A model generated the notes under the pieces. That model saw nothing but the letters and a program-made list of their open reading frames with translations, searched no databases and was not told the DNA's origin. A stretch of 64,000 nucleotides of DNA. Origin: Candidatus Parcubacteria bacterium (GTDB lineage: Bacteria; Patescibacteriota; Patescibacteriia; Patescibacteriales; UBA12075). Shown one piece after another: positions 4,738-63,094 of the stretch. The DNA is taken from NCBI GenBank assembly GCA_963814275.1, contig CAWFCE010000001.1:323307-387306 (forward strand). The letters are read 5' to 3'. Position 1 is the first letter of the stretch, and each line of letters starts with the position of its first letter. Position numbers and translations under genes: made by a program.

Positions 4738-4807
4738 AGACCGGATATATCAAAGAGAGCGGAGTATTTCCCGGAAATGCTCCGTTTTGCTTTTTCATAT
4801 GGATATG

Positions 4808-4872
4808 TAGGATGCTGAAGCATCCCGGACCTTCGGCCCTGCCTGCCGGCAGGCAGGTAAAGCCAAGTGGAA
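4808..4872. repeat. composite hairpin repeat (GGATGCTGAAGCATCC / CCTTCGG / CCTGCCTGCCGGCAGGCAGG / GCCAAGTGGAA)
   Basis: About 65 bp recurs in inverted orientation at 49899-49962 with a few mismatches. Confidence 0.8.
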
Positions 4873-4916
4873 GCGAACGGGCATGGGAACGCACAATTTT
4901 GCGTTCCTTCCGGTTA

Positions 4917-7153: not shown

Positions 7154-7901
7154 ATGGTTAAGCAATTGAAAGATGAAGAGCGTTTGATTATAGCAGCCGA
7201 TTACAAACCTGCGGATTGGGGAGGCGTAAGCGGAGTCAAGAAAAAAGTATTACAACTCGTGGAAAAACTCAGCGAAACCGGCGTATTTATCAAAGTTAAT
7301 TCAGTTCTCCGGGCAATCGGTTACGGACTAATCGCCGATCTGCATTCAGCTGGCCTTAAAGTTTTTGCGGATTTAAAACTCAATGATATTCCCAATACGA
7401 TGGGCATTCAAGCCGAATCGCTTATTATGTTTTAACCTGAAATTCGTGACTGTAATGTGTTCAGCTGGAATCGACGGTATGCAGGCTGTCCAGAAGACCA
7501 TCGGGGATTTCTGCGAGGTGCTGGGCGTGACAGTGTTAACCAGTCTGAATAAAAGTAAATGTCAGGCGATTTATGGATGTTCGCCAGAGGCGGGGGTATT
7601 GCGTTTTTCCCGAATGGCGAAAACCGCTGGCCTCGGCGGCCTGATTCTTTCACCGAATGAATTGGTAATTACCAAAAATCATTTCGAATTATCAGGTCTT
7701 AGCTTGAACACGCCAGCAATCCGTCCGTTTTGGTCGTTAGTAAATGATGACGATCAAAGCAGGATATCAACGCCCTTTAAGGCGATTCAGGCCGGAGCTG
7801 ATCGGATTGTCGTGGGGCGGCCAATTATTGGCGCCAAAGATCCGCGCGAGGCAGCACTGAAAACTTTAGATGAAATAAGAGAAGGCCTGAAAAAAAGCTG
7901 A
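7154..7901 (+). pseudogene. pyrF: orotidine-5'-phosphate decarboxylase split by a +1 frameshift at a T4 run (7430-7433)
   Basis: ORF 7154-7435 carries DLKLNDIPNT; ORF 7383-7901 continues with VTVMCSAG...IVVGRPI; removing one T restores ...ESLIMFNLKFVTV... Confidence 0.8.
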
Positions 7902-18535: not shown

Positions 18536-18718
18536 ATGACGAAATGTACATTGGCAGAAAATAACAATGGTGGGTTTAGCTTTTCGAAACCGATTATTCT
18601 GGACCAAGATGGCGTTCGGGAAGCAGCCCAGATGGACTATAACCAGGAAAAGGGGCTGTGTCCCCTGGACCGCAGCCAGATCCAGGACCTGATGGCGGCG
18701 GTCGAGGCGTCGTGTTGA
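18536..18718 (+). CDS. small hypothetical protein (60 aa)
   Basis: AAAGGGGG RBS and a strong downstream terminator. Confidence 0.55.
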   Translation: MTKCTLAENNNGGFSFSKPIILDQDGVREAAQMDYNQEKGLCPLDRSQIQDLMAAVEASC

Positions 18719-35225: not shown

Positions 35226-35400
35226 CATGGGAGTTATATGATATATTCCAAACCAAAGTATTTAGACTATAAAAAATATCCTTTGAGGATATTTTTTATT
35301 TGTTATAGCTGTTATTTAACCGAAATTTCCCGCGAAAACCCGGGCTGAAGCCCGGTAGAAAGCCGGAGCATTATTCTGACGGGCTTCAGTCCGGGTTCGG

Positions 35401-36762
35401 ATGGGTGCCGTGTATTCGGTTTTTAACGATATGCGTTTAAAATATTCAAAATCGATTTTAATTGCAGTGGTTTTATTAAACCTGCTGGTCATTCTTTATT
35501 TTTGGCGGCAGAATTCAGGCAGTTTGCTCAAGGGCAGTAATGCCGATATCCTGCTGGCTGCGGGCCGGGCCAGCGGCCTGATCCTCGTATTTCTGATCCT
35601 ATCCCAGCTTTTTCTGATGGGCCGGGCCAGGCCCCTGGAAAGGGTTTGGGGGCTGGACAGACTTTCGCGCATCCACCATTGGAACGGCGTGTTGGCCCTG
35701 GTTTTCCTGTTTGCGCACCCGATCTTGATCGCCAGCAGCCTGGCGCTTTATGAAAAAATCAATTTTTTCCGGTCATTATTGCTTTTCCTGCAGAATGACG
35801 ATGTTCTGGCCGCTTTTTTCGGGCTAGTGATCCTGCTTGCAGTTATTTTCGTATCGACAGCCGTGATTATTTTCCGCTGGCGTTATGAGTTTTTTTATTT
35901 TCTTCACCTCACCGTTTATCTGGCGATACTCCTGGTCTTCAGCCATCAGATGGAATTGGGCGGCGATTTTGGCGCCCAGCCCCTGTTCCGCGCTTATTGG
36001 ATATTATTGTATACGGCGGTAATCGGCCAGTTGCTGTTCTACCGCTTTGCCCGCCCGCTCTGGCTGTCCTGGCGCTACCGTTTCCGGGTGAAAGAAGTGA
36101 ACGCGGAATCGCCTGAGTCGGTATCGATCATAATCAGCGGCCGTGATACGGGATCATTCAGGTCAATTCCCGGACAATTCATGATCTATCGTTTTTTCGC
36201 GCCGCGGCTGTGGTGGCAGGCGCATCCTTTTACTATTTCCGGCCGGCCGGATGGTGATATCCGGCTGACCGTCAAGGCAGTGGGGGATTATACCCGGGAT
36301 ATCCAGAAGCTAAAACCCGGTACATCGGTTTTGCTTGAAGGGCCATACGGCGTTTTTACCGCCCGGGAGCCGCTGAAGGATAAATATTTGTTGATTGCCG
36401 GCGGCATCGGCATCACGCCGCTTTTTTCTTTGGCCGAATTTTTAACCGTTAAAAGGAAAGACGTGATATTGGTTTACGGCAATCGCACTAAGTCCGCGAT
36501 CGTGTTCAGGAGTGTCCTGGATCGGATGGCAAAACAGCGGGAAAATCTGCGCGTAAATTATATATTGAGCGAGGAAAAACGGCCGGGATACGCGAACGGA
36601 TACGTTGATTTGGATAAAATAACAAAATTCGCACCGGATTACCATGAACGGGAAATCTATCTCTGCGGCCCGGTGCCGATGATGAATAAATTGATTGCCG
36701 AATTGGGAAAGAACGGCGTGAAGAAAAAGAGATTGCATTATGAAAAATTTTCGTTAAATTGA
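35401..36762 (+). CDS. NOX/FRE-type flavocytochrome (ferric-reductase TM domain plus FAD/NAD(P)H-binding domain)
   Basis: Two TM His pairs (HHW-x13-H, H-x12-H), HPFTISG, GPYG, GGIGITP and CGP motifs; alternative start at 35431. Confidence 0.8.
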   Translation: MGAVYSVFNDMRLKYSKSILIAVVLLNLLVILYFWRQNSGSLLKGSNADILLAAGRASGLILVFLILSQLFLMGRARPLERVWGLDRLSRIHHWNGVLALVFLFAHPILIASSLALYEKINFFRSLLLFLQNDDVLAAFFGLVILLAVIFVSTAVIIFRWRYEFFYFLHLTVYLAILLVFSHQMELGGDFGAQPLFRAYWILLYTAVIGQLLFYRFARPLWLSWRYRFRVKEVNAESPESVSIIISGRDTGSFRSIPGQFMIYRFFAPRLWWQAHPFTISGRPDGDIRLTVKAVGDYTRDIQKLKPGTSVLLEGPYGVFTAREPLKDKYLLIAGGIGITPLFSLAEFLTVKRKDVILVYGNRTKSAIVFRSVLDRMAKQRENLRVNYILSEEKRPGYANGYVDLDKITKFAPDYHEREIYLCGPVPMMNKLIAELGKNGVKKKRLHYEKFSLN

Positions 36763-36805
36763 CATTTATCTTGACATTAAATATCGGTTTTGATAATATT
36801 CATAT

Positions 36806-37074
36806 ACTTATGGGGCACGATTCCGGGAATGATGCATGGCGCCCAATTGAGGACCGGCGGTTTTTCGCCAGCCACAGGGACCCGGATGGACCTATACGCC
36901 GGCATATCGGTTCCATTGTAGTCACACCGGAACCGACAAATATCCTCGCGCAGGGGTTTTTCATATTCGTCATACCGGGAGACGAGATTATCGTCCCGGA
37001 ATCGTGTTCCACCAATTCCCCTTTTTTGTTCATTGTTAAACCCCCTGACAGCGTTACTGTCAGGGGTCTTTTTT
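36806..37074 (+). ncRNA. candidate structured sRNA (rod-like, 6S-like or other), family unknown
   Basis: TTGACA(36771-36776)-17 nt-TGaTAATAT(36794-36799); 17-bp closing helix 36812-36828/36994-37010; internal hairpins; terminator 37042-37066 followed by a T run. Confidence 0.5.
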
Positions 37075-37182
37075 ATCCCAAATAATTCCTGATATTTAAT
37101 TTTGAAATAATAATTAGTTAATTGCGTACTAATAAATAGAAAGGAAGTTTTCCCTAAAAAAATTATTAATGAAACCACAAGT

Positions 37183-37644
37183 ATGGATTATTTTCAGAAA
37201 TACAAAAAAGCGGCGATCAGTATCGCTATCCTGACGCTTATGATGACCGCCGGCCTCAGTTCGGCCTATGCCGCGACCGACAGCCAGGGGTTCACGCCAA
37301 ATTCATTCAAGACCGATACGCAGATCAATCTCTTGAATACCCTGGAGGCAGGGGATTATGAACAATGGAAGCAGGCAGTGGGGCATTATTCCGGCCTTTC
37401 CGGCGTTATTGCCAAGGATGATTTTCTGGAATTCATCCGGGCCCGGAAATTTGCACGCGAGGGCCGCTATGACGAGTCGCTGGCCATGAGCCAGGCTTTG
37501 GGCGACAGATTGGCCGCAAAACTAGTCGATTACCTCAAAACCGACAAGCGCCGTCCGAACAGCCAGACTTGGGATAAGGTTCTGGGCGCCCTGCAGGCCG
37601 GAGATTTTCAGGCGTTAGAAACGATATTGGCTAACACAAAATAA
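37183..37644 (+). CDS. secreted hypothetical protein (153 aa)
   Basis: Signal peptide ending in AYA|AT. Confidence 0.5.
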   Translation: MDYFQKYKKAAISIAILTLMMTAGLSSAYAATDSQGFTPNSFKTDTQINLLNTLEAGDYEQWKQAVGHYSGLSGVIAKDDFLEFIRARKFAREGRYDESLAMSQALGDRLAAKLVDYLKTDKRRPNSQTWDKVLGALQAGDFQALETILANTK

Positions 37645-38011
37645 GCAATACAATTATCCGCGTAAAATCAGCGTATAATCCGCGGTTAGAAGATTTGCAA
37701 AGGGATAAAATTCAAATAATAAATTTAAGATGGTTAGCATAGAGTACAATAATAATTATTTGCAAACAAAGGAGGGATAGATAAAGTGCATAGTAATAAA
37801 TAAAACATCCCGAATGCCGCACCCGCCAGGGGCGGCTTTTGGGTTGGAATATTTTTTTGTACGATTTTTACACGGAATCGGAAACGGACTGTTTTTCCGG
37901 CGCTAGCCGGACGGGCAGTTTGCCGGGAAATATGCAAAAATATTGCGAACTGCCTGCTCCGCTTCGCTGCGCAAACAGTCCGGGCACCATGCAAACAATC
38001 CGGGCGCCGGT

Positions 38012-38040
38012 TTGAATTTTCCGAAGAAAATCGCTATAAT
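38012..38040 (+). promoter_or_regulatory. sigma70-type promoter
   Basis: TTGAAT-17 nt-TATAAT; identical hexamers and spacing at 54036-54064. Confidence 0.65.
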
Positions 38041-38075
38041 TTGCGTATTATATTATAACCAGTTATGATCGTATT

Positions 38076-38660
38076 ATGAAGGAATACTATGCCGTGCCGG
38101 ACAAAACCGACGAAGAGCTTGTTGCCATGACCCTGGCCGACCAGGAGAATTTTTTATTTCTCGTCAACCGTTACAAAGAGAAGTTATTCCGTTATATCCG
38201 CCGGCTGACCAATATCAGCGCGGAAGACGCCGAAGACATCCTGCAGGAAGTCTTTATGAAGGCTTACGTCAATTTGAACGATTTCGAACAGGACCTCAAA
38301 TTTTCTTCCTGGATCTACCGCATCGCCCATAACCAGGTGATCAGCCATCACCGCAAAATAATGGTCCGGCCGCAGGGGAACGCGGTTAATCTGGAAGATA
38401 GTGAAGTAATGAACATCGCCGCCGACCTGGATACCGAAAAAGACATCGATATCAAGATCCTGCGCCAGAATATCGATATGGTCGCTTCCCGCCTGGAACC
38501 GAAATACCGCGAAGTGCTGATCCTCAGGTATTTTGAGGATAAGAATTACCAGGAAATCTCCGATATCATCAAGCGCCCGCTCGGCACAGTCGCATCCTAT
38601 CTCAATAAGGCCAAGCAGGAGTTTCGTGACGAGATTGAAAAGCAGAAGATTAAATTTTAA
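38076..38660 (+). CDS. RNA polymerase sigma-70 family (ECF-like) sigma factor
   Basis: Region 2 (DILQEVF.KAY.NL..F......F.SWIYRIAHNQ) and region 4 (YREV..LRYFE...YQEISDI...P.GTV). Confidence 0.85.
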   Translation: MKEYYAVPDKTDEELVAMTLADQENFLFLVNRYKEKLFRYIRRLTNISAEDAEDILQEVFMKAYVNLNDFEQDLKFSSWIYRIAHNQVISHHRKIMVRPQGNAVNLEDSEVMNIAADLDTEKDIDIKILRQNIDMVASRLEPKYREVLILRYFEDKNYQEISDIIKRPLGTVASYLNKAKQEFRDEIEKQKIKF

Positions 38661-38705
38661 TAATTGAGTTGGATTATCGGTCAAGAGCGAAAGGATAACC
38701 TTAAA

Positions 38706-38777
38706 GAAATTTGAAATTAGAAATTGGAAATTCGGAATCGGTTTACGCCCAATTTCCAGTTACAAATTTCAAATTTC
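38706..38777. repeat. GAAATT/GGAAATT-word imperfect palindrome
   Basis: gaaatttgaaattagaaattggaaattc ... caatttccagttacaaatttcaaatttc; related copies at 41689-41774, 46008-46062 plus 46197-46216, 55565-55644 and 63044-63092. Confidence 0.8.
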
Positions 38778-38833
38778 ACTCTTCCTTGTTTGTTCGCATA
38801 TTGGGAATAGATGAAGAAACTAATCAAATATAT

Positions 38834-39706
38834 ATGGAATTAAAAAAATCATTCGGCCAGGAGCTCCTGGGAAAGATCAAGGAAAAGAAACTGGTCCCCA
38901 AACCAAAATGGCAGTTTTTTTTGAAAGATTATATGGTTTGGGGCTCCGGAGTGGCCGCGTTGTTCGTCGGCGGGTTGGCCTTTTCCGTCATTATTTATAT
39001 GTTCATCAATAACGATTGGGGCGTATACGAACATTTCAGCGGCAGCTTGCTTGGTTTTGTCCTGCTGTCACTGCCTTATTTCTGGATATTGCTTCTCGTG
39101 TTATTCATCGCGATCGTCAATTATAATATCAAGCACACCAAGAACGGTTACCGCTATCCGATCGGCGTCATCGCCGCCGCCTCGATCGTCGTGAGCGCCG
39201 GGATCGGGCTGATATTTTTCGGCGCCGGCATGAGCCAGGCGGTAGACGAGATATTGGGAGAGAATTTACCCCTATATGAAAAGTTCATCAATAGCCGTAT
39301 CGGCCAGTGGGAGCATCCCGGGGAAGGGCTGTTGGCGGGATTGGTGACAGAGAGAATTTCGACTTCCAGCATTATCGTCTTCGGACTGGACAGGAAAGAA
39401 TGGACCGTGGACCTGAGTGGGGCGCGGATCGCGCCGGGAGTCGAGATCACTGTCGGCCAGCCCTTGAAGTTTACCGGCGAAGCGGTTTCGGATAATGTTT
39501 TCCGCGCCGGCGAGGTCTTGCCGGCCGGACCGGGCGGGGGATTCCTCAGACGCAACAATCGGATGCATTTTATTGGTCCGGAAGGCGGAGTCCGCAACCG
39601 GATAAACCCGGGTCTGCCTGGCCGGCTGCCGATGATGGAAGGCAGGCCGATCTTACCGGGGTTGCCCCGCGGTATCGGCAGCAGTACGGATAGCGGTAAT
39701 ATTTAA
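38834..39706 (+). CDS. membrane protein partner of the sigma factor (putative anti-sigma-like)
   Basis: Short cytoplasmic N-terminus with KPKPKWQFF, about 4 TM spans, extracytoplasmic C-terminus; paralog at 54754-55488; ATG at 38834 chosen because the track TTG (38711) lies inside the palindrome. Confidence 0.6.
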   Translation: MELKKSFGQELLGKIKEKKLVPKPKWQFFLKDYMVWGSGVAALFVGGLAFSVIIYMFINNDWGVYEHFSGSLLGFVLLSLPYFWILLLVLFIAIVNYNIKHTKNGYRYPIGVIAAASIVVSAGIGLIFFGAGMSQAVDEILGENLPLYEKFINSRIGQWEHPGEGLLAGLVTERISTSSIIVFGLDRKEWTVDLSGARIAPGVEITVGQPLKFTGEAVSDNVFRAGEVLPAGPGGGFLRRNNRMHFIGPEGGVRNRINPGLPGRLPMMEGRPILPGLPRGIGSSTDSGNI

Positions 39707-40005
39707 GTTAAATAGTATAATTTTTAAATCATTCAAATTTCTTCCCGGCCGGGAAGAAATTTTTTTAACCCTGCGTATTAACAGATAGGGGACGCAAAAG
39801 AGATCTCTATCCCAAAAAAATCCGCATAATACATTTAATATTCAATTAATTTCGAGACTGTAAGATAAGATAACATTCTTTTCTTATTAATAATCGGGTT
39901 GGCGAAGACGCGGAAAAGAACGTTAACAATCTTAACTTATTTAAATCCCGGCGATATGAAGGCTCGCGTGGAACCCCAGTCTTTATATCGCCGGAAAAAT
40001 AAATT

Positions 40006-40542
40006 ATGAAGAAGTCTAATGTTATGATGACGGGCGCCGCGGCGCTCGTCGCCTTGGTCGCGGTGGCCGGTATGGCGATGTACACATTCGCCCAGGACAA
40101 TACCGCCACCGATACGCCAACAGCCCCGTTTTTCGGGCGGGGCGGTATGCAATGGCAGAATCTGACCGATGAACAAAAAACCCAGCTTGAAGCCCAGAGA
40201 CAGGCCCAACAGGAAAAATACCAGGCCGAGCGCGACGAGATTAATGCCGCAATGGCCAAGGGATATGACGCCTGGGTAACAGTGGTCAAGAAATATATGG
40301 GCGAAAATGCGCCGATACTGAGCGTGATCAACACGGGTAATTTTGACAAATACGTACAAGCCCAGGGATATTCACAACAGGCCCAGACGCTTTATGACGA
40401 GATCGGATTGCCAGGCAAAGGTTTTGGCGGCTGTCTGGGCGGCGGATTCGGACGACACGGCGGTATGATGGGTTTTGGCGGCAGATACCAGGGTGATATT
40501 GATGCCGGCATGAACACCAACACGAATACGCAGACACAATAA
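40006..40542 (+). CDS. secreted LTxxQ-motif (CpxP/Spy-like) protein with Gly-rich tail
   Basis: Signal peptide; NLTDEQKTQLEAQRQAQQEKY; C-terminal GFGGCLGGGFGRHGGMMGFGG. Confidence 0.55.
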   Translation: MKKSNVMMTGAAALVALVAVAGMAMYTFAQDNTATDTPTAPFFGRGGMQWQNLTDEQKTQLEAQRQAQQEKYQAERDEINAAMAKGYDAWVTVVKKYMGENAPILSVINTGNFDKYVQAQGYSQQAQTLYDEIGLPGKGFGGCLGGGFGRHGGMMGFGGRYQGDIDAGMNTNTNTQTQ

Positions 40543-40640
40543 ATAAATGTTAGCTTTTTAAGAGCAGTCTTTCGAGAGAGGCTGCTCTTATTATTTTTGT
40601 TTTGTGAATAATAAATTTTTCAGGAAGTGCATGATGGCTT

Positions 40641-40797
40641 TGCCATAAATTATCAATTTTCAATTATCAATGACCCAATCAATATCAAATTTTCAATACT
40701 CAATATTTAAACGGAATATTGGGTATTTCATGGTGTTTGAAAATTTAATATTCGATATTGATTGAGTCACTGGATAATTGGGTTATTGGTAATTGGC
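40641..40797. repeat. long AT-rich imperfect palindrome (CAATTATCAAT / CAATATT words)
   Basis: Arms of about 70 bp centred near 40712; core caatcaatatc...attttcaa mirrored in both arms; related words at 58187-58240. Confidence 0.75.
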
Positions 40798-40949
40798 AGA
40801 TATCCATGATTAATCCGATATAAGAGCTATTTATTCCTAACATTAAATTAATTTAAAAATTTTGCCACGTCTTGTTTTTCAAAGAAAAATGCCCTAAAAT
40901 GCGTATTAGTATATATAATGGATAACTTATTATTTTAAAATTAGCCAAT

Positions 40950-41642
40950 ATGAAGAAAACTGCAATTTTTGTGGCATTTTTTGTTGCATTAATGACACTG
41001 AGCGGCTGTGCCCAAAAAACCAGCGGAAACACCAATAACCCCGCCGGCAATGCCAGCGCCGGAAATGGCGCGGCAGCCGGCAGCCTGGCCGGGCGGATGC
41101 CGGATTTCGGCCAACCGGACCGGCAGCCGGATATTAGCGGTATTGTCCAGTCAATAACCGGCAACGAAGTGACAATCCTCAAGATCGACCGGCCAGCCCG
41201 CAACTCCGATGGCAGCGGGCCGGCTGATAGCCAGACGCAAAACACGGACAACAATAATCGGCCAGCCGGCATACCGGGTGTAGGCGGCACCGGAGGCCGG
41301 GGTGGATTCGTGGCAGGCGGCGGAGGCGGCGGCAGATTCGTGGCAGGCGGCGGAGGCGGCGGACCAGAGGGGGCTGGCGGGCAAAACGGCGGCAATTTCG
41401 ACCGGACAGCCATGCTTGAACAATTGAAAGCAATGAGTAGCGGTTCCGAAACAGTAACCGTACCGGTCGGCATCAGGATGCTTAAGCCCGACACCACCAC
41501 CACCGGTACGGCACAAGCCAGAGATAGGAATATGACCGAGGCCAATCTGGGTGATATCCAGGCCGACAAAATGGTCAGTATCTGGCTGAATACGGACATC
41601 ACCGACCGCAATATCGCAGATTTTGTCCTTATAACGAGATAG
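40950..41642 (+). CDS. Gly-rich lipoprotein
   Basis: Lipobox LSGC; internal duplication GGFVAGGGGGG/RFVAGGGGGG. Confidence 0.6.
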   Translation: MKKTAIFVAFFVALMTLSGCAQKTSGNTNNPAGNASAGNGAAAGSLAGRMPDFGQPDRQPDISGIVQSITGNEVTILKIDRPARNSDGSGPADSQTQNTDNNNRPAGIPGVGGTGGRGGFVAGGGGGGRFVAGGGGGGPEGAGGQNGGNFDRTAMLEQLKAMSSGSETVTVPVGIRMLKPDTTTTGTAQARDRNMTEANLGDIQADKMVSIWLNTDITDRNIADFVLITR

Positions 41643-41688
41643 AATTATAAAATAAACCGCTGTTTAGTATTAAGTCAGACAGATAATA

Positions 41689-41774
41689 GGAAACTTGAAA
41701 CTAGAAACTGGAAATTAGAAATTTTATATCGTTAATCTATCCAATTTCCAGTTACAATTTTCCAGTTACAAAAT
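41689..41774. repeat. GAAACT/GGAAATT-word imperfect palindrome
   Basis: ggaaacttgaaactagaaactggaaattagaaatt ... ccaatttccagttacaattttccagttac. Confidence 0.75.
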
Positions 41775-41781
41775 ATGTTAG

Positions 41782-46002: not shown

Positions 46003-46307
46003 GATATTCGGGAAATTGGAAATTAGAAACTGGAAATTTGGTTTTTTAAATCCAAATTTCGGCTTAAGTAGTTTTTGGACGCTTATTTCCTGAAAATTTG
46101 CCAATCATCCCATGTCGATATCCGATCTATGCCTCGATGATTACCGGGCAAATCCTTTAAAGTTTTAAAAACAACATAAGTCCATATTCGCCATATCTAA
46201 TTTCCGGTTACAAATTAATTTAGATAAACCTAATAAAAATATAATAAAATTTTAATTAAAATATAACCCCGCCGTGATAAGCTCATTAATATTTAAAAAA
46301 AAGAAAA

Positions 46308-49649: not shown

Positions 49650-49898
49650 TATAATATCGGGAGGATTTTGAGAATCATCTATTGCCAATTTTTATTAATC
49701 AATAATCCGGCTATCGATTAAAAAGTTTTCTGATGGTGATAGGGCAGCTGGTGCCCGAAAATTAAAATTTATTTTATCGTACATAATTTCAAACCCGGGG
49801 CCCAGGAAACCAGGGGTTTTTTATTGGGTTATTATTTTGTACGAGGCTGAAGCCTCGGAAACCTTCGGCTAAAGCCAAGTGGAAAAACCCCGTCGCGT

Positions 49899-49962
49899 TC
49901 CACTTGGCTTTACCTGCCTGCCGGCAGGCAGTGTCGAAGGTCCGGGATGCTTTAGCATCCTA
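49899..49962. repeat. inverted copy of the 4808-4872 composite hairpin repeat
   Basis: ttccacttggctttacctgcctgccggcaggcag...cgaaggtccgggatgctttagcatcctac; adjacent 11-bp hairpin gccaagtggaa/ttccacttggc (49874-49908). Confidence 0.8.
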
Positions 49963-50101
49963 CAATATTTTGTCCGGAAAAATAAAACCAACCATAAACT
50001 GAAGTCAAGGGAAAACAACCTGATCCCAAACGCTTTTTGCCGATTGGACGTAATGCGGCCATTTATAGTATAATAAACAGAGATTATTTAGTGTCACTTT
50101 C

Positions 50102-54035: not shown

Positions 54036-54064
54036 TTGAATATTGAAATAAATAAATGTATAAT
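54036..54064 (+). promoter_or_regulatory. sigma70-type promoter
   Basis: TTGAAT-17 nt-TATAAT, same hexamers as 38012-38040. Confidence 0.65.
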
Positions 54065-54097
54065 TTCGTAATATACTATAAATACGAGCTAAACTAA

Positions 54098-54679
54098 ATG
54101 ATCAGTGAGCTTGAGTGCGAGGGGAAAACAGACGAAATATTGGCGCGCCTGGCCTTAGTTGACGAGGATTATTTGGGTTGCCTGATCAGGCGTTACGAAA
54201 AACCCCTGGCGCGCTATATCCGGCGGCTAACCAATGTAGCGGAAGACGAAATTTCCGATATTCTGCAGGAAGTATTCATCAGCGTTTATAAAAACCTGAA
54301 CGATTTCGACCCTGAGCTCAAATTTTCATCATGGATATATCGTATCACCCACAACCAGGTGATCAGCCACCACCGCAAGAAGCAGAGCAGGCCGCAGACG
54401 ATCGAGGTAGACCTAAGCGATGAATCGCTCAATCATCTGGCTTCCGAATTGGATACCGGCCGTGAAGCCGATTTGCGCCTATTGGGCGAGCAAGTCGAGC
54501 GAACGCTTGCCGGAATGGAAGAGAAATACCGCGATGTATTGGTGTTGAAGTTTTTCGAAGAAAAAAGCTACCAGGAGATTAGCGATATTCTCAAGAAGCC
54601 CATGGGCACGATCGCTACGCTCTTGAGCCGAGCCAAAAAGCAGTTCAGAATTATTTACGAAAAACAAGGTAAAAAGTAA
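54098..54679 (+). CDS. RNA polymerase sigma-70 family (ECF-like) sigma factor, paralog of 38076-38660
   Basis: Collinear with the first copy, e.g. DILQEVFISVYKNLNDFDPELKFSSWIYRITHNQVISHHRK. Confidence 0.85.
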   Translation: MISELECEGKTDEILARLALVDEDYLGCLIRRYEKPLARYIRRLTNVAEDEISDILQEVFISVYKNLNDFDPELKFSSWIYRITHNQVISHHRKKQSRPQTIEVDLSDESLNHLASELDTGREADLRLLGEQVERTLAGMEEKYRDVLVLKFFEEKSYQEISDILKKPMGTIATLLSRAKKQFRIIYEKQGKK

Positions 54680-55564: not shown

Positions 55565-55644
55565 TAGAAATTCGAAATTGGAACTGGAAATTTGTTAAAT
55601 TTTATTAAATATTAACAAATTTCCAGTTTTAAATTCCCGGTTTC
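55565..55644. repeat. GAAATT-word palindrome, probably a terminator
   Basis: Perfect 15-bp stem ctggaaatttgttaa (55583-55597) / ttaacaaatttccag (55612-55626) followed by TTTT. Confidence 0.8.
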
Positions 55645-56039
55645 ATAATTTGAAAGAAAAATTATTCTGGCACGTATTATTAATTATAAGGGCCCGTTAA
55701 TTATAATTAATAATTAATTAATTAAAATTCATGAACTATAGTTTAGCGATAGCGGTAAATGCCGCTTTTGCTAATTAGCTCCGAATACTGAATTCGGTGG
55801 GATATTCCGAGAATGGCGCGGCAGTAATGCCGGCCGCATCGATTGCCTGGCAACAAGAGGCATGGGGCGCGGGCACATCGAAAATGTGAATTACCGCCAC
55901 AGTGTTATGAGAGCTTTAAAAATCAAAATCAGTTATTTCCTCCAAATAAAAATCGTCCGCTTCCTGAATAGGTATGCGGGCGGTTTTTGTAATATGGCCT
56001 GGCAGAGTGCTGCCAGACCATTAATCATGTATTCGGTTT

Positions 56040-60018: not shown

Positions 60019-60188
60019 TCTCTCCTTAATTGTTTTTTTAAAAAAATAGACGAGGTAAAATAACAGACATCTTGTCACGTTATTATTTGTTCTATTTGCT
60101 TCATGCTACGTGCTGCATGATTCGTGAAGAGTGATATGTAGTATTTAAATAAGACAATGTTTTATTATTGCCAAGTTATAAATTATTT

Positions 60189-60604
60189 ATGTCCACGTTA
60201 TATATAGTTGCCACGCCAATCGGGAATCTGGAAGATATTTCCATGAGAGCGCTTCGCCCCGTCATCCGACAGGGCTTCGCTTCGAAATTTTTATGACCAC
60301 ACTTTATATAGTCGCCACGCCTATCGGGAATCTGGAAGATATTTCCATGAGAGCGCTTCGCCCCGTCATCCGACAGGGCTTCGCTTCGAAATTTTTATGA
60401 CCACACTTTATATAGTCGCCACGCCTATCGGGAATCTGGAAGATATTTCCATGAGAGCGCTTCGCCCCGTCATCCGACAGGGCTTCGCTTCGAAATTTTT
60501 ATGACCACACTTTATATAGTCGCCACGCCTATCGGGAATCTGGAAGATATTTCCATGAGAGCGCTTCGCCCCGTCATCCGACAGGGCTTCGCTTCGAAAT
60601 TTTT
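60189..60604 (+). repeat. four tandem 104-bp units duplicating the rsmI start region
   Basis: ATGs at 60189, 60293, 60397 and 60501, with the genuine start at 60605; units 2-4 are identical; unit 1 differs at 6 nt. Confidence 0.9.
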
Positions 60605-61393
60605 ATGACCACACTTTATATAGTCGCCACGCCTATTGGGAATCTGGAAGATATTTCCATGAGAGCGCTTCGCATTCTGGGGGAGGTTGATTTTGTGTTG
60701 TGTGAAGACACCAGGGTGACGCAGAAGCTGCTGTCCCATTACAATATCAAAACGCCGACAATGTCATTTCATCAGCATTCCGACGATATCAAGATCGATC
60801 GTATCTTGAAGCTGTTCGCCGAGGGGAAGAATCTGGCCCTGGTAACGGACGCGGGTACTCCCGGCATCTCCGATCCCGGCGGCAAATTGGTGCAGGCTGT
60901 AATTGAGGAGTCCAATTCGGGGAAATTACAGGAAAAACCGGTCCATGTCGAATCGGTTCCTGGACCATCCGCGGTTACCGCCGCCTTGTCCATTTCCGGG
61001 ATTCCGACCGACAAGTTCATGTTTATGGGCTTCCCCCCGCACAAAAAGGGCCGGATGTCTTTTATTGAGCGCATTGCCTCAAGCGTTTATCCGGTCGTTA
61101 TTTATGAGTCCAAGCATCGTATAATCAAATTTCTCGATGAATTGGCGGCTCTGAACCGCCAGATACTGAAACGCAATAAAGAGATCGACAACGAACTCGA
61201 GCAAGGCGCCTCGGCAGAGCGGAAAGAGCTGTCGGCTTTCAAACGCGCGCCGGTTACTTCGGTCGTGGTATGCCGTGAATTGAGCAAGCTGCACGAAACC
61301 GTTTATCGCGGCGATCTGGATTACATAATCAAACAGATCAAAGAAAATAAAGACGACCAGCGCGGGGAATTTACGGTGATAATCGGGAAATAG
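60605..61393 (+). CDS. rsmI: 16S rRNA (cytidine1402-2'-O)-methyltransferase
   Basis: LYIVATPIGNLEDIS.RAL..L..VD.V.CEDTR, DAGTP.ISDPG, GPSA and RELSKLHE motifs. Confidence 0.9.
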   Translation: MTTLYIVATPIGNLEDISMRALRILGEVDFVLCEDTRVTQKLLSHYNIKTPTMSFHQHSDDIKIDRILKLFAEGKNLALVTDAGTPGISDPGGKLVQAVIEESNSGKLQEKPVHVESVPGPSAVTAALSISGIPTDKFMFMGFPPHKKGRMSFIERIASSVYPVVIYESKHRIIKFLDELAALNRQILKRNKEIDNELEQGASAERKELSAFKRAPVTSVVVCRELSKLHETVYRGDLDYIIKQIKENKDDQRGEFTVIIGK

Positions 61394-63043: not shown

Positions 63044-63094
63044 GATTTGAGATTTGTATAGAAATTAGGAATTATAATTTAGAAATTTTCTAAA

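Follow-up and report, generated by a model that had tools for sequence, protein, structure and literature searches.

The best-supported reading of the spacer downstream of the ferric-reductase/NOX-like gene is a plus-strand promoter-to-terminator unit for a structured non-coding RNA, a reading that is plausible and unproven. As a stand-alone plus-strand unit it would yield a non-coding RNA of ~265 nt (~36806-37074), to which we give about an even chance; we infer its transcription, transcript ends, strand and function from the features described below. A separate structured RNA is favoured by the placement of the transcription signals, by the failure of the overlapping frames in coding tests, and by what appears to be a promoter of the downstream gene's own beyond the terminator. 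All positions refer to the window, the stretch of 64,000 nucleotides that was analysed (Table 1). The window encodes MetRS, GARS, DHODH, a histidine kinase and further housekeeping proteins, and judged by its sequence is cellular DNA.

Patescibacteria-like bacteria have small genomes in which little regulation is expected, and only very few candidate regulatory RNAs have been described from them; if this reading is true, the unit would join that short list. It would also set right the public annotation of a 'hypothetical protein' that is likely mis-annotated. The adjoining envelope-stress cluster, with its ECF sigma factor, putative anti-sigma factor and CpxP-like secreted proteins, provides the obvious first hypothesis. 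An sRNA-like unit in a bacterial spacer would not surprise a specialist and opens no long-standing question; here it is a single-sequence prediction.

Transcription signals and predicted fold

The original prediction placed a promoter and a strong terminator around the element, and both are found where it put them: TTGACA, a 17-nt spacer and TGaTAATAT on the 5' side, and a G+C-rich hairpin with a U-tract on the 3' side. The promoter scores 10/12, with the extended -10 on top, and its combination of a perfect -35 with a TGn extended -10 occurs only a few times in the window. Sigma-70-type promoters in the window lie 28-127 nt 5' of real gene starts, which indicates that the sigma-70 consensus carries meaning here and that the promoter at 36771 is probably functional. 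At the other end, the terminator stem (CCCCTGACAG/CTGTCAGGGG) comprises 10 bp, seven of them G-C, with a folding energy of -18.3 kcal/mol, and is followed by TCTTTTTTAT. This hairpin is the sole terminator downstream of the NOX-like gene. Because that gene has no terminator of its own, NOX read-through should stop at the same place. The region between the signals is a G+C island (G+C content 0.55) flanked by A+T-rich spacers. A predicted promoter and a predicted intrinsic terminator thus bracket a segment without a credible ORF, the arrangement expected of an independent bacterial sRNA gene.

Table 1. Positions of the features of the unit and of its neighbours in the window
Feature	Position	Strand	Basis or remark
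-35 hexamer TTGACA, perfect	36771-36776	+	sequence
Extended -10 TGaTAATAT (TG 36791-36792, TAATAT 36794-36799)	36791-36799	+	17-nt spacer to the -35
Predicted transcript 5' end (~7 nt past the -10) and short 5' overhang	36806-36810	+	promoter geometry
Closing stem, 5' strand (18 bp, bulged A36829, 5 bp)	36811-36834	+	pair probabilities 0.99-1.0
Branched interior, three sub-domains	36835-36988	+	MFE = centroid
Closing stem, 3' strand	36989-37011	+	pair probabilities 0.99-1.0
C/U-rich linker CCAAUUCCCCUUUUUUGUUCAUUGUUAAAC, predicted single-stranded; candidate seed or anti-SD region	37012-37041	+	unpaired probability mostly 0.8-0.99
Intrinsic terminator: 10-bp G+C-rich hairpin (37042-37066), then U-tract UCUUUUUUAU	37042-37076	+	
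91-aa ORF, annotated gene in the public record	36810-37085	+	judged most likely non-coding
77-aa ORF	37033-36800	-	
133-aa ORF	37178-36777	-	
ECF-type promoter-like TGAAAT-N16-CGTACT, outside the RNA; 3' boundary of the unit	37103-37130	+	p153 (37183-37644) downstream
p153, secreted 153-aa protein	37183-37644	+	
ECF sigma factor	38076-38660		within the ~5-kb stretch
Membrane protein in anti-sigma position	38711-39706		within the ~5-kb stretch

The signals enclose a long helix, first described as 17 bp between 36812-36828 and 36994-37010. It is in fact one pair longer, with 18 unbroken pairs (36811-36828 / 36994-37011) of which two are G-U (36814/37008 and 36815/37007), and it starts 5 nt from the predicted 5' end of the transcript. 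Past the bulged A36829 it gains five further pairs (36830-36834 / 36989-36993), as had been proposed, giving a closing helix of 23 bp whose pair probabilities in the partition function are 0.99-1.0. This stem encloses a branched interior of ~155 nt. The shape had been called rod-like; the predicted fold is instead a multi-branch junction, in which the MFE and centroid structures agree on a long closing stem and three branches (36838-36883, 36885-36961 and 36967-36985). Among the interior hairpins suggested earlier, those at 36856-36869 and 36907-36936 are present in the first and second branch, respectively, whereas the GAGGA/TCCTC pairing exists in the sequence but is unused in the MFE structure. 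A similar distinction applies to the competing local hairpin (36975-36999), which is real, at -11.7 kcal/mol alone, but has an equilibrium probability below 0.001.

Compared with dinucleotide shuffles, the fold has z = -4.6 over 269 nt and z = -3.9 over the 211-nt body. Uninterrupted helices of at least 18 bp spanning at most 400 nt number six in the window as against 0.5 per shuffled window, making them ~12-fold rarer in shuffled sequence. Dividing the entire window into 211-nt pieces gives tiles with an average z of -0.8 (sd 1.55), of which 4.6%, mostly in spacers, reach z ≤ -3.9. With this share of tiles equally structured, the structure of the unit is real but not exceptional for the genome. 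The spacers of this genome are generally rich in G+C hairpin islands, and the structure of the unit belongs among them. The minus strand is equally foldable (z = -4.5 to -5.0), and for this reason a strand call from folding energy is rejected; the closing helix, through its two G-U pairs, gives the plus strand only a slight preference.

Folding that is symmetric between strands is the expectation for a DNA palindrome, and this gives weight to a reading in which the element is a palindrome or relic at the DNA level (MITE- or REP-like, or a decayed gene fragment), functionless and transcribed incidentally as the NOX 3' UTR. The spacers of the genome have several more G+C-rich hairpin islands and palindromes that recur; these, the position of the unit within a ~5-kb stretch missing from the closest syntenic relative, and a weak outer inverted repeat (36766-36785 / 37091-37110) are consistent with such an origin. 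The element also resembles the Correia, ERIC and RUP families in being an intergenic unit of ~200 bp with 18-bp inverted repeats, a strand-symmetric fold, and promoter and terminator signals. Unlike those families, it is branched rather than a hairpin rod in its interior, no target-site duplications adjoin its 18-bp arms (flanks ATACTTA / CCAATTC), and blastn against the 64-kb window finds a single copy. A single-sequence covariance model of the unit (R1) likewise detected no paralogue in the window, where it returned generic hairpins only, and none in 61 loci. Neither a transposase nor an integrase was detected in the window. Moreover, a promoter of the strongest type in the window lies exactly against the element, with a strong terminator at the other end, a placement not readily accounted for in a passive relic. 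On this evidence, a functionless palindrome or relic is unlikely.

Open frames and neighbouring genes

Three open frames extend over the island: on the plus strand one of 108 aa, or 91 aa when counted from the ATG at 36810, and on the minus strand two, of 77 aa and 133 aa. The original prediction had set aside every overlapping ORF as implausible. Poor coding scores agree with that verdict, which had nevertheless missed the 91-aa ORF, a gene annotated publicly and called a second time on a Logan contig. Its description of the frames was also correct, with two exceptions. The plus-strand stop (37083-37085) does lie ~10 nt past the U-tract, but the ORF from ATG 36810 starts after the promoter rather than containing it, and the 77-aa minus-strand ORF begins not beyond the terminator but just inside it, at 37033.

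Coding potential was scored as a codon log-odds trained on 27 window genes, with real 77-codon segments as the reference. Real segments score 0.20 +/- 0.08 per codon and wrong frames -0.26 +/- 0.21; for the three open frames the values are 0.02, 0.03 and -0.07, and all six frames fall below the coding distribution. The 91-aa ORF stands at the 2nd percentile of real genes by codon score and again by amino-acid composition (12% Pro, 2% Lys, 3% Leu), although the likelihood ratios that the coding statistics yield against it are few-fold only. AlphaFold2 returned a pLDDT of 38, which counts as weak evidence against coding because the run used a single sequence. When the three open frames were compared by phmmer with 1.84 billion representative proteins, the 91-aa ORF matched itself alone; it forms a singleton cluster among public proteins, and Pfam and NCBIfam searches of the open frames were empty.

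A small orphan protein translated from a nearly leaderless mRNA is the natural counter-reading of this ORF. Two gene-calling runs report it, its ATG lies 3-4 nt past the inferred transcription start, making it possibly leaderless, and its GC content by codon position (0.55/0.45/0.56) leans weakly toward that of real genes (0.54/0.38/0.62). The missing Shine-Dalgarno sequence proves nothing against it, since only 15 of the 56 window genes have one. Against these points stand the lack of any homologue and the coding statistics given above, together with the layout of the locus. Because the stop lies beyond the terminator U-tract, terminated transcripts would be without a stop codon. The usual order in the window is stop, terminator, promoter, gene, from which this ORF departs, and no second promoter in the window is so near a start codon. 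In the predicted fold, the AUG is partly inside the closing helix and would be sequestered there. We regard an orphan protein gene as rather unlikely. Judged from sequence statistics, all of the open frames are most likely non-coding, and the annotated 91-aa 'hypothetical protein' is likely mis-annotated.

The structured RNA that we favour would have the NOX-like gene on one side and an envelope-stress cluster on the other. The closest syntenic relative is L059 (ENA ERZ25039495 contig_50142), with NOX 52% and the transporter genes 36-48% identical; there, HlyD/ABC/MacB come directly after NOX (contig 7290-7497). In the window the same genes are found 5 kb further on, and the whole extra stretch (36763-41781), the unit included, is absent from the relative. 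Besides the unit, p153, the ECF sigma factor and the membrane protein in the anti-sigma position, this stretch holds two secreted proteins, one a weak CpxP-like match, and looks like a lineage-specific envelope-stress module.

Between the terminator and p153 there is no sigma-70-type promoter scoring at least 10/12. An ECF-type pattern, TGAAAT-N16/17-CGTA, has two matches in the window, as compared with ~1.5 chance matches expected over both strands. The match at 37103-37130 is 55 nt 5' of p153, and that at 54044-54070 is 28 nt 5' of a second ECF sigma gene (54098-54679), which is a paralogue of the one at 38076-38660. From these placements, p153 appears to have its own stress-dependent ECF-type promoter past the terminator, which suggests an ECF regulon that includes p153. 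With an ECF-like motif after the terminator, the RNA need not be the leader of p153.

A cis-acting 5' leader of p153 and the envelope-stress cluster, riboswitch-like or an attenuator, would sense a ligand or protein through its structured domain and so set read-through of the hairpin at 37042-37066. The unit is directly 5' of p153 in the same orientation, the intervening spacer offers no sigma-70-type alternative, and a P1-like stem that closes a junction and is followed by a terminator is the usual layout of riboswitches. A weak anti-terminator of 6+3 bp, read from the sequence and from repeat D1, could form between CAGGGGUUU (36951-36959) and AAACCCCCUG (37037-37047), and the alternative local hairpin competes for the 3' arm of the closing stem. 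However, a 23-bp closing stem with pair probability ~1 is far too stable to switch, a 30-nt linker separates it from the terminator, no convincing mutually exclusive pairing is seen, and known aptamer families are without match. The ECF-type promoter-like motif past the terminator is, in addition, at a typical distance from the p153 ATG. A leader is therefore unlikely. The leader, the orphan protein and the passive relic are each minority readings that we still count as live rivals of the separate RNA.

A small protein on the minus strand is very improbable: the 77-aa and 133-aa frames are open, the shorter has an SD-like AGGGGG-N7-ATG start, and there is short similarity to a propeller repeat motif (GPxGxLW...SIGR), but the SD is the terminator stem itself, the 77-aa codon score is under that of every real-gene segment tested, GC3 of the 133-aa ORF is ~2.8 sd low, no minus-strand promoter or terminator was found, and the phmmer matches of the minus frames are either a single ~25-residue motif, scored 6-7 times over because the target repeats it, or two repeats of a eukaryote-like protein.

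Relatives and known RNA classes

The only other copy found of the locus is on a Logan contig that is 99.9% identical over 4.5 kb, with five SNPs, none of them in the unit. The closest relatives of the NOX-like protein belong to Saccharimonadales and other Patescibacteria, which suggests a Patescibacteria-like source. An identical protein is present on a public contig and the next-best homologues are 52-54% identical, from which the lineage is seen to be sparsely sampled. Among genome contigs scanned with the NOX-like protein, no relative exceeded 37% identity and none yielded a homologue of the RNA, and a second relative locus (L060) holds no homologue of the unit. Scans of viral contigs and JGI metagenomes for the exact two-arm helix pattern found none, as did a distant-mode search for relatives in phage and plasmid collections. 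A metagenome search for loci based on p153 gave one match, a high-GC ModA-like gene that was set aside as a false positive. The unit is thus an orphan, lineage-specific sRNA candidate with no relatives in the databases searched.

None of the 4227 Rfam families matches anywhere in the 64 kb at its gathering score, and relaxing the search to E ≤ 10 for the locus 36650-37250 returned noise only. The 6S or Y-RNA-like fit in the original prediction is therefore not supported. The unit is like 6S RNA (RF00013) in its size, in the pairing of its ends in a long closing stem and in its strong promoter. Its interior differs, being a three-branch junction of stable hairpins where 6S RNA has a large helix-flanked central bubble, and the 6S covariance model gives no match even at E ≤ 10. 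With Y RNA/YrlA it shares a long stem formed from the two ends and a structured module inside. No Rfam match to that class was obtained, no Ro60/TROVE or RtcB is encoded among the 59 Pfam-scanned window proteins, so that the Ro/RtcB linkage is absent in the window, and no tRNA-like module was detected.

Other classes were rejected on similar grounds. Known riboswitch and leader classes gave noise only (His_leader, 17.5 bits against a threshold of 49). A retron msr-msd or a TnpB omega RNA was discarded in the absence of a reverse transcriptase or TnpB/IscB gene from the window, the neighbours being the ferric-reductase-like gene and the secreted 153-aa protein. T-box, integron attC and ECF-promoter-inside-element readings were dropped, the required partner genes or motifs being missing.

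The layout has closer parallels among small RNAs. Some sRNAs of the 3'-UTR type, such as DapZ and MicL, have their own promoter and share a terminator with the upstream mRNA, and CpxQ is an envelope-stress sRNA. Like DapZ and MicL, the unit has its own promoter right after the upstream stop and a single shared intrinsic terminator; it also adjoins a cluster associated with envelope stress (ECF sigma / CpxP-like), which recalls CpxQ and other envelope-stress sRNAs. It has no evident sequence or structure relationship to any of the three, and its promoter is of the sigma-70 type, not the ECF type. Compared with typical Hfq-type sRNAs, its body is much larger and more structured. The exposed UUCCCCU just before the terminator is reminiscent of the C-rich anti-SD motifs of RoxS/RsaE (RF01820), in that it could pair with purine-rich ribosome-binding sites. 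RF01820 aligns weakly to the C-rich part (17 bits, E = 3, against a gathering threshold of 79 bits). Unlike RoxS/RsaE, the unit has only one C-rich motif, and its 200-nt structured 5' domain has no counterpart there.

If the unit is a separate RNA, the sigma-70-type promoter would fire just 5' of the 23-bp closing stem around the three-branch interior, the ~30-nt single-stranded C/U-rich linker would follow, and the strong intrinsic terminator would end the RNA. Transcripts reading through from NOX would stop at this terminator too, with the same structured region as their 3' UTR. The most likely action would be that of a trans-acting regulatory RNA. Here, the structured body may provide stability or protein binding, while the exposed UUCCCCU-containing linker (AAUUCCCCUUUUUUG) may pair with purine-rich ribosome-binding regions. 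Within the window, complementarity between the linker and translation start regions is weak (p ~0.05), and the best partner is the start region (AAAAAGGGGG) of a small gene at 18536. Target pairing by the linker is, on this comparison, marginal.

A more ambitious proposal, which we consider quite improbable, is that the unit would be the founding member of a new class of structured regulatory RNA in a sparsely sampled Patescibacteria-like lineage. In the boldest version it would be a large three-way-junction sensor domain tied to the ECF-sigma/CpxP-like module, either as a leader that responds to a ligand or protein or as an RNA that sequesters protein.

Other structured and repeated elements

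A second promoter-to-terminator unit without an ORF lies on the minus strand at 19167-18856, with a body of ~250 nt. It begins with TTGACA-16-TGATAATAT (19167-19140), in which the extended -10 (19148-19140) is identical to that of the promoter at 36771, and ends in the terminator AGGACUCUC-aac-GAGAGUCCUUUUU (~18880-18856). Its fold has z = -4.1, there is no Rfam match at E ≤ 1, and it contains junk ORFs only. The recurrence of this promoter combination at another ORF-less unit counts in favour of a separate RNA at 36806-37074. Should the new-class proposal be true, this unit would hint at a wider, undescribed sRNA repertoire in reduced genomes.

Two further structured segments lie close to the genes flanking the unit. 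Between p153 and the ECF sigma gene is a G+C-rich non-coding island (37805-38015, plus strand), in which a terminator-like hairpin with a T-run (37806-37846) is followed by a long imperfect hairpin (~37885-37985) that has no promoter ahead of it. The island folds with z = -5.4 on the plus strand and -2.2 on the minus strand, has no Rfam match, and its overlapping ORFs have poor codon scores. On the other side, an 18-bp G+C-rich hairpin (35337-35397, plus strand; CCCGGGCTGAAGCCCG ... CGGGCTTCAGTCCGGG) reaches to within 3 nt of where the NOX-like gene has its first ATG. No sigma-70-type promoter scoring at least 9/12 lies between the preceding terminator (~35270-35300) and that gene, and the hairpin is a possible structured leader of it.

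Repeated elements occur elsewhere in the spacers. A 76-nt G+C-rich element is present as two inverted copies (4806-4881 and 49889-49964), 91% identical, 45 kb apart and both in spacers. Its internal hairpins are GGATGCTGAAGCATCC and CTGCCTGCCGGCAGGCAG, and with z = -6.2 and -7.0 the tiles surrounding the copies are more structured than any others in the window. A+T-rich palindromes of one family (GAAATTGGAAATTAGAAACTGGAAATT ... AATTTCCAGTT) are found at 38705-38778, 41687-41771, 46011-46059, 55565-55647 and 63053-63094, in spacers just 5' of genes that include the one in the anti-sigma position and that for HlyD, which marks the right-hand end of the ~5-kb stretch. These palindromes could be operators, REP-like elements or terminators.

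Two observations concern genes away from the unit. A 104-nt tandem repeat (60180-60673; 4.7 copies, 97% identical) has a repeat unit that holds the start of an RsmI-like methyltransferase gene at 60605 (MTTLYIVATPIGNLEDISMRAL...), and represents either a real amplification of the 5' end or an assembly artefact. The OMP-decarboxylase (pyrF) domain appears split over two overlapping ORFs (7154-7435 and 7383-7901), of which the 93-aa ORF covers only positions 2-73 of the 221 in the profile; a frameshift, a pseudogene or a sequencing error is possible.
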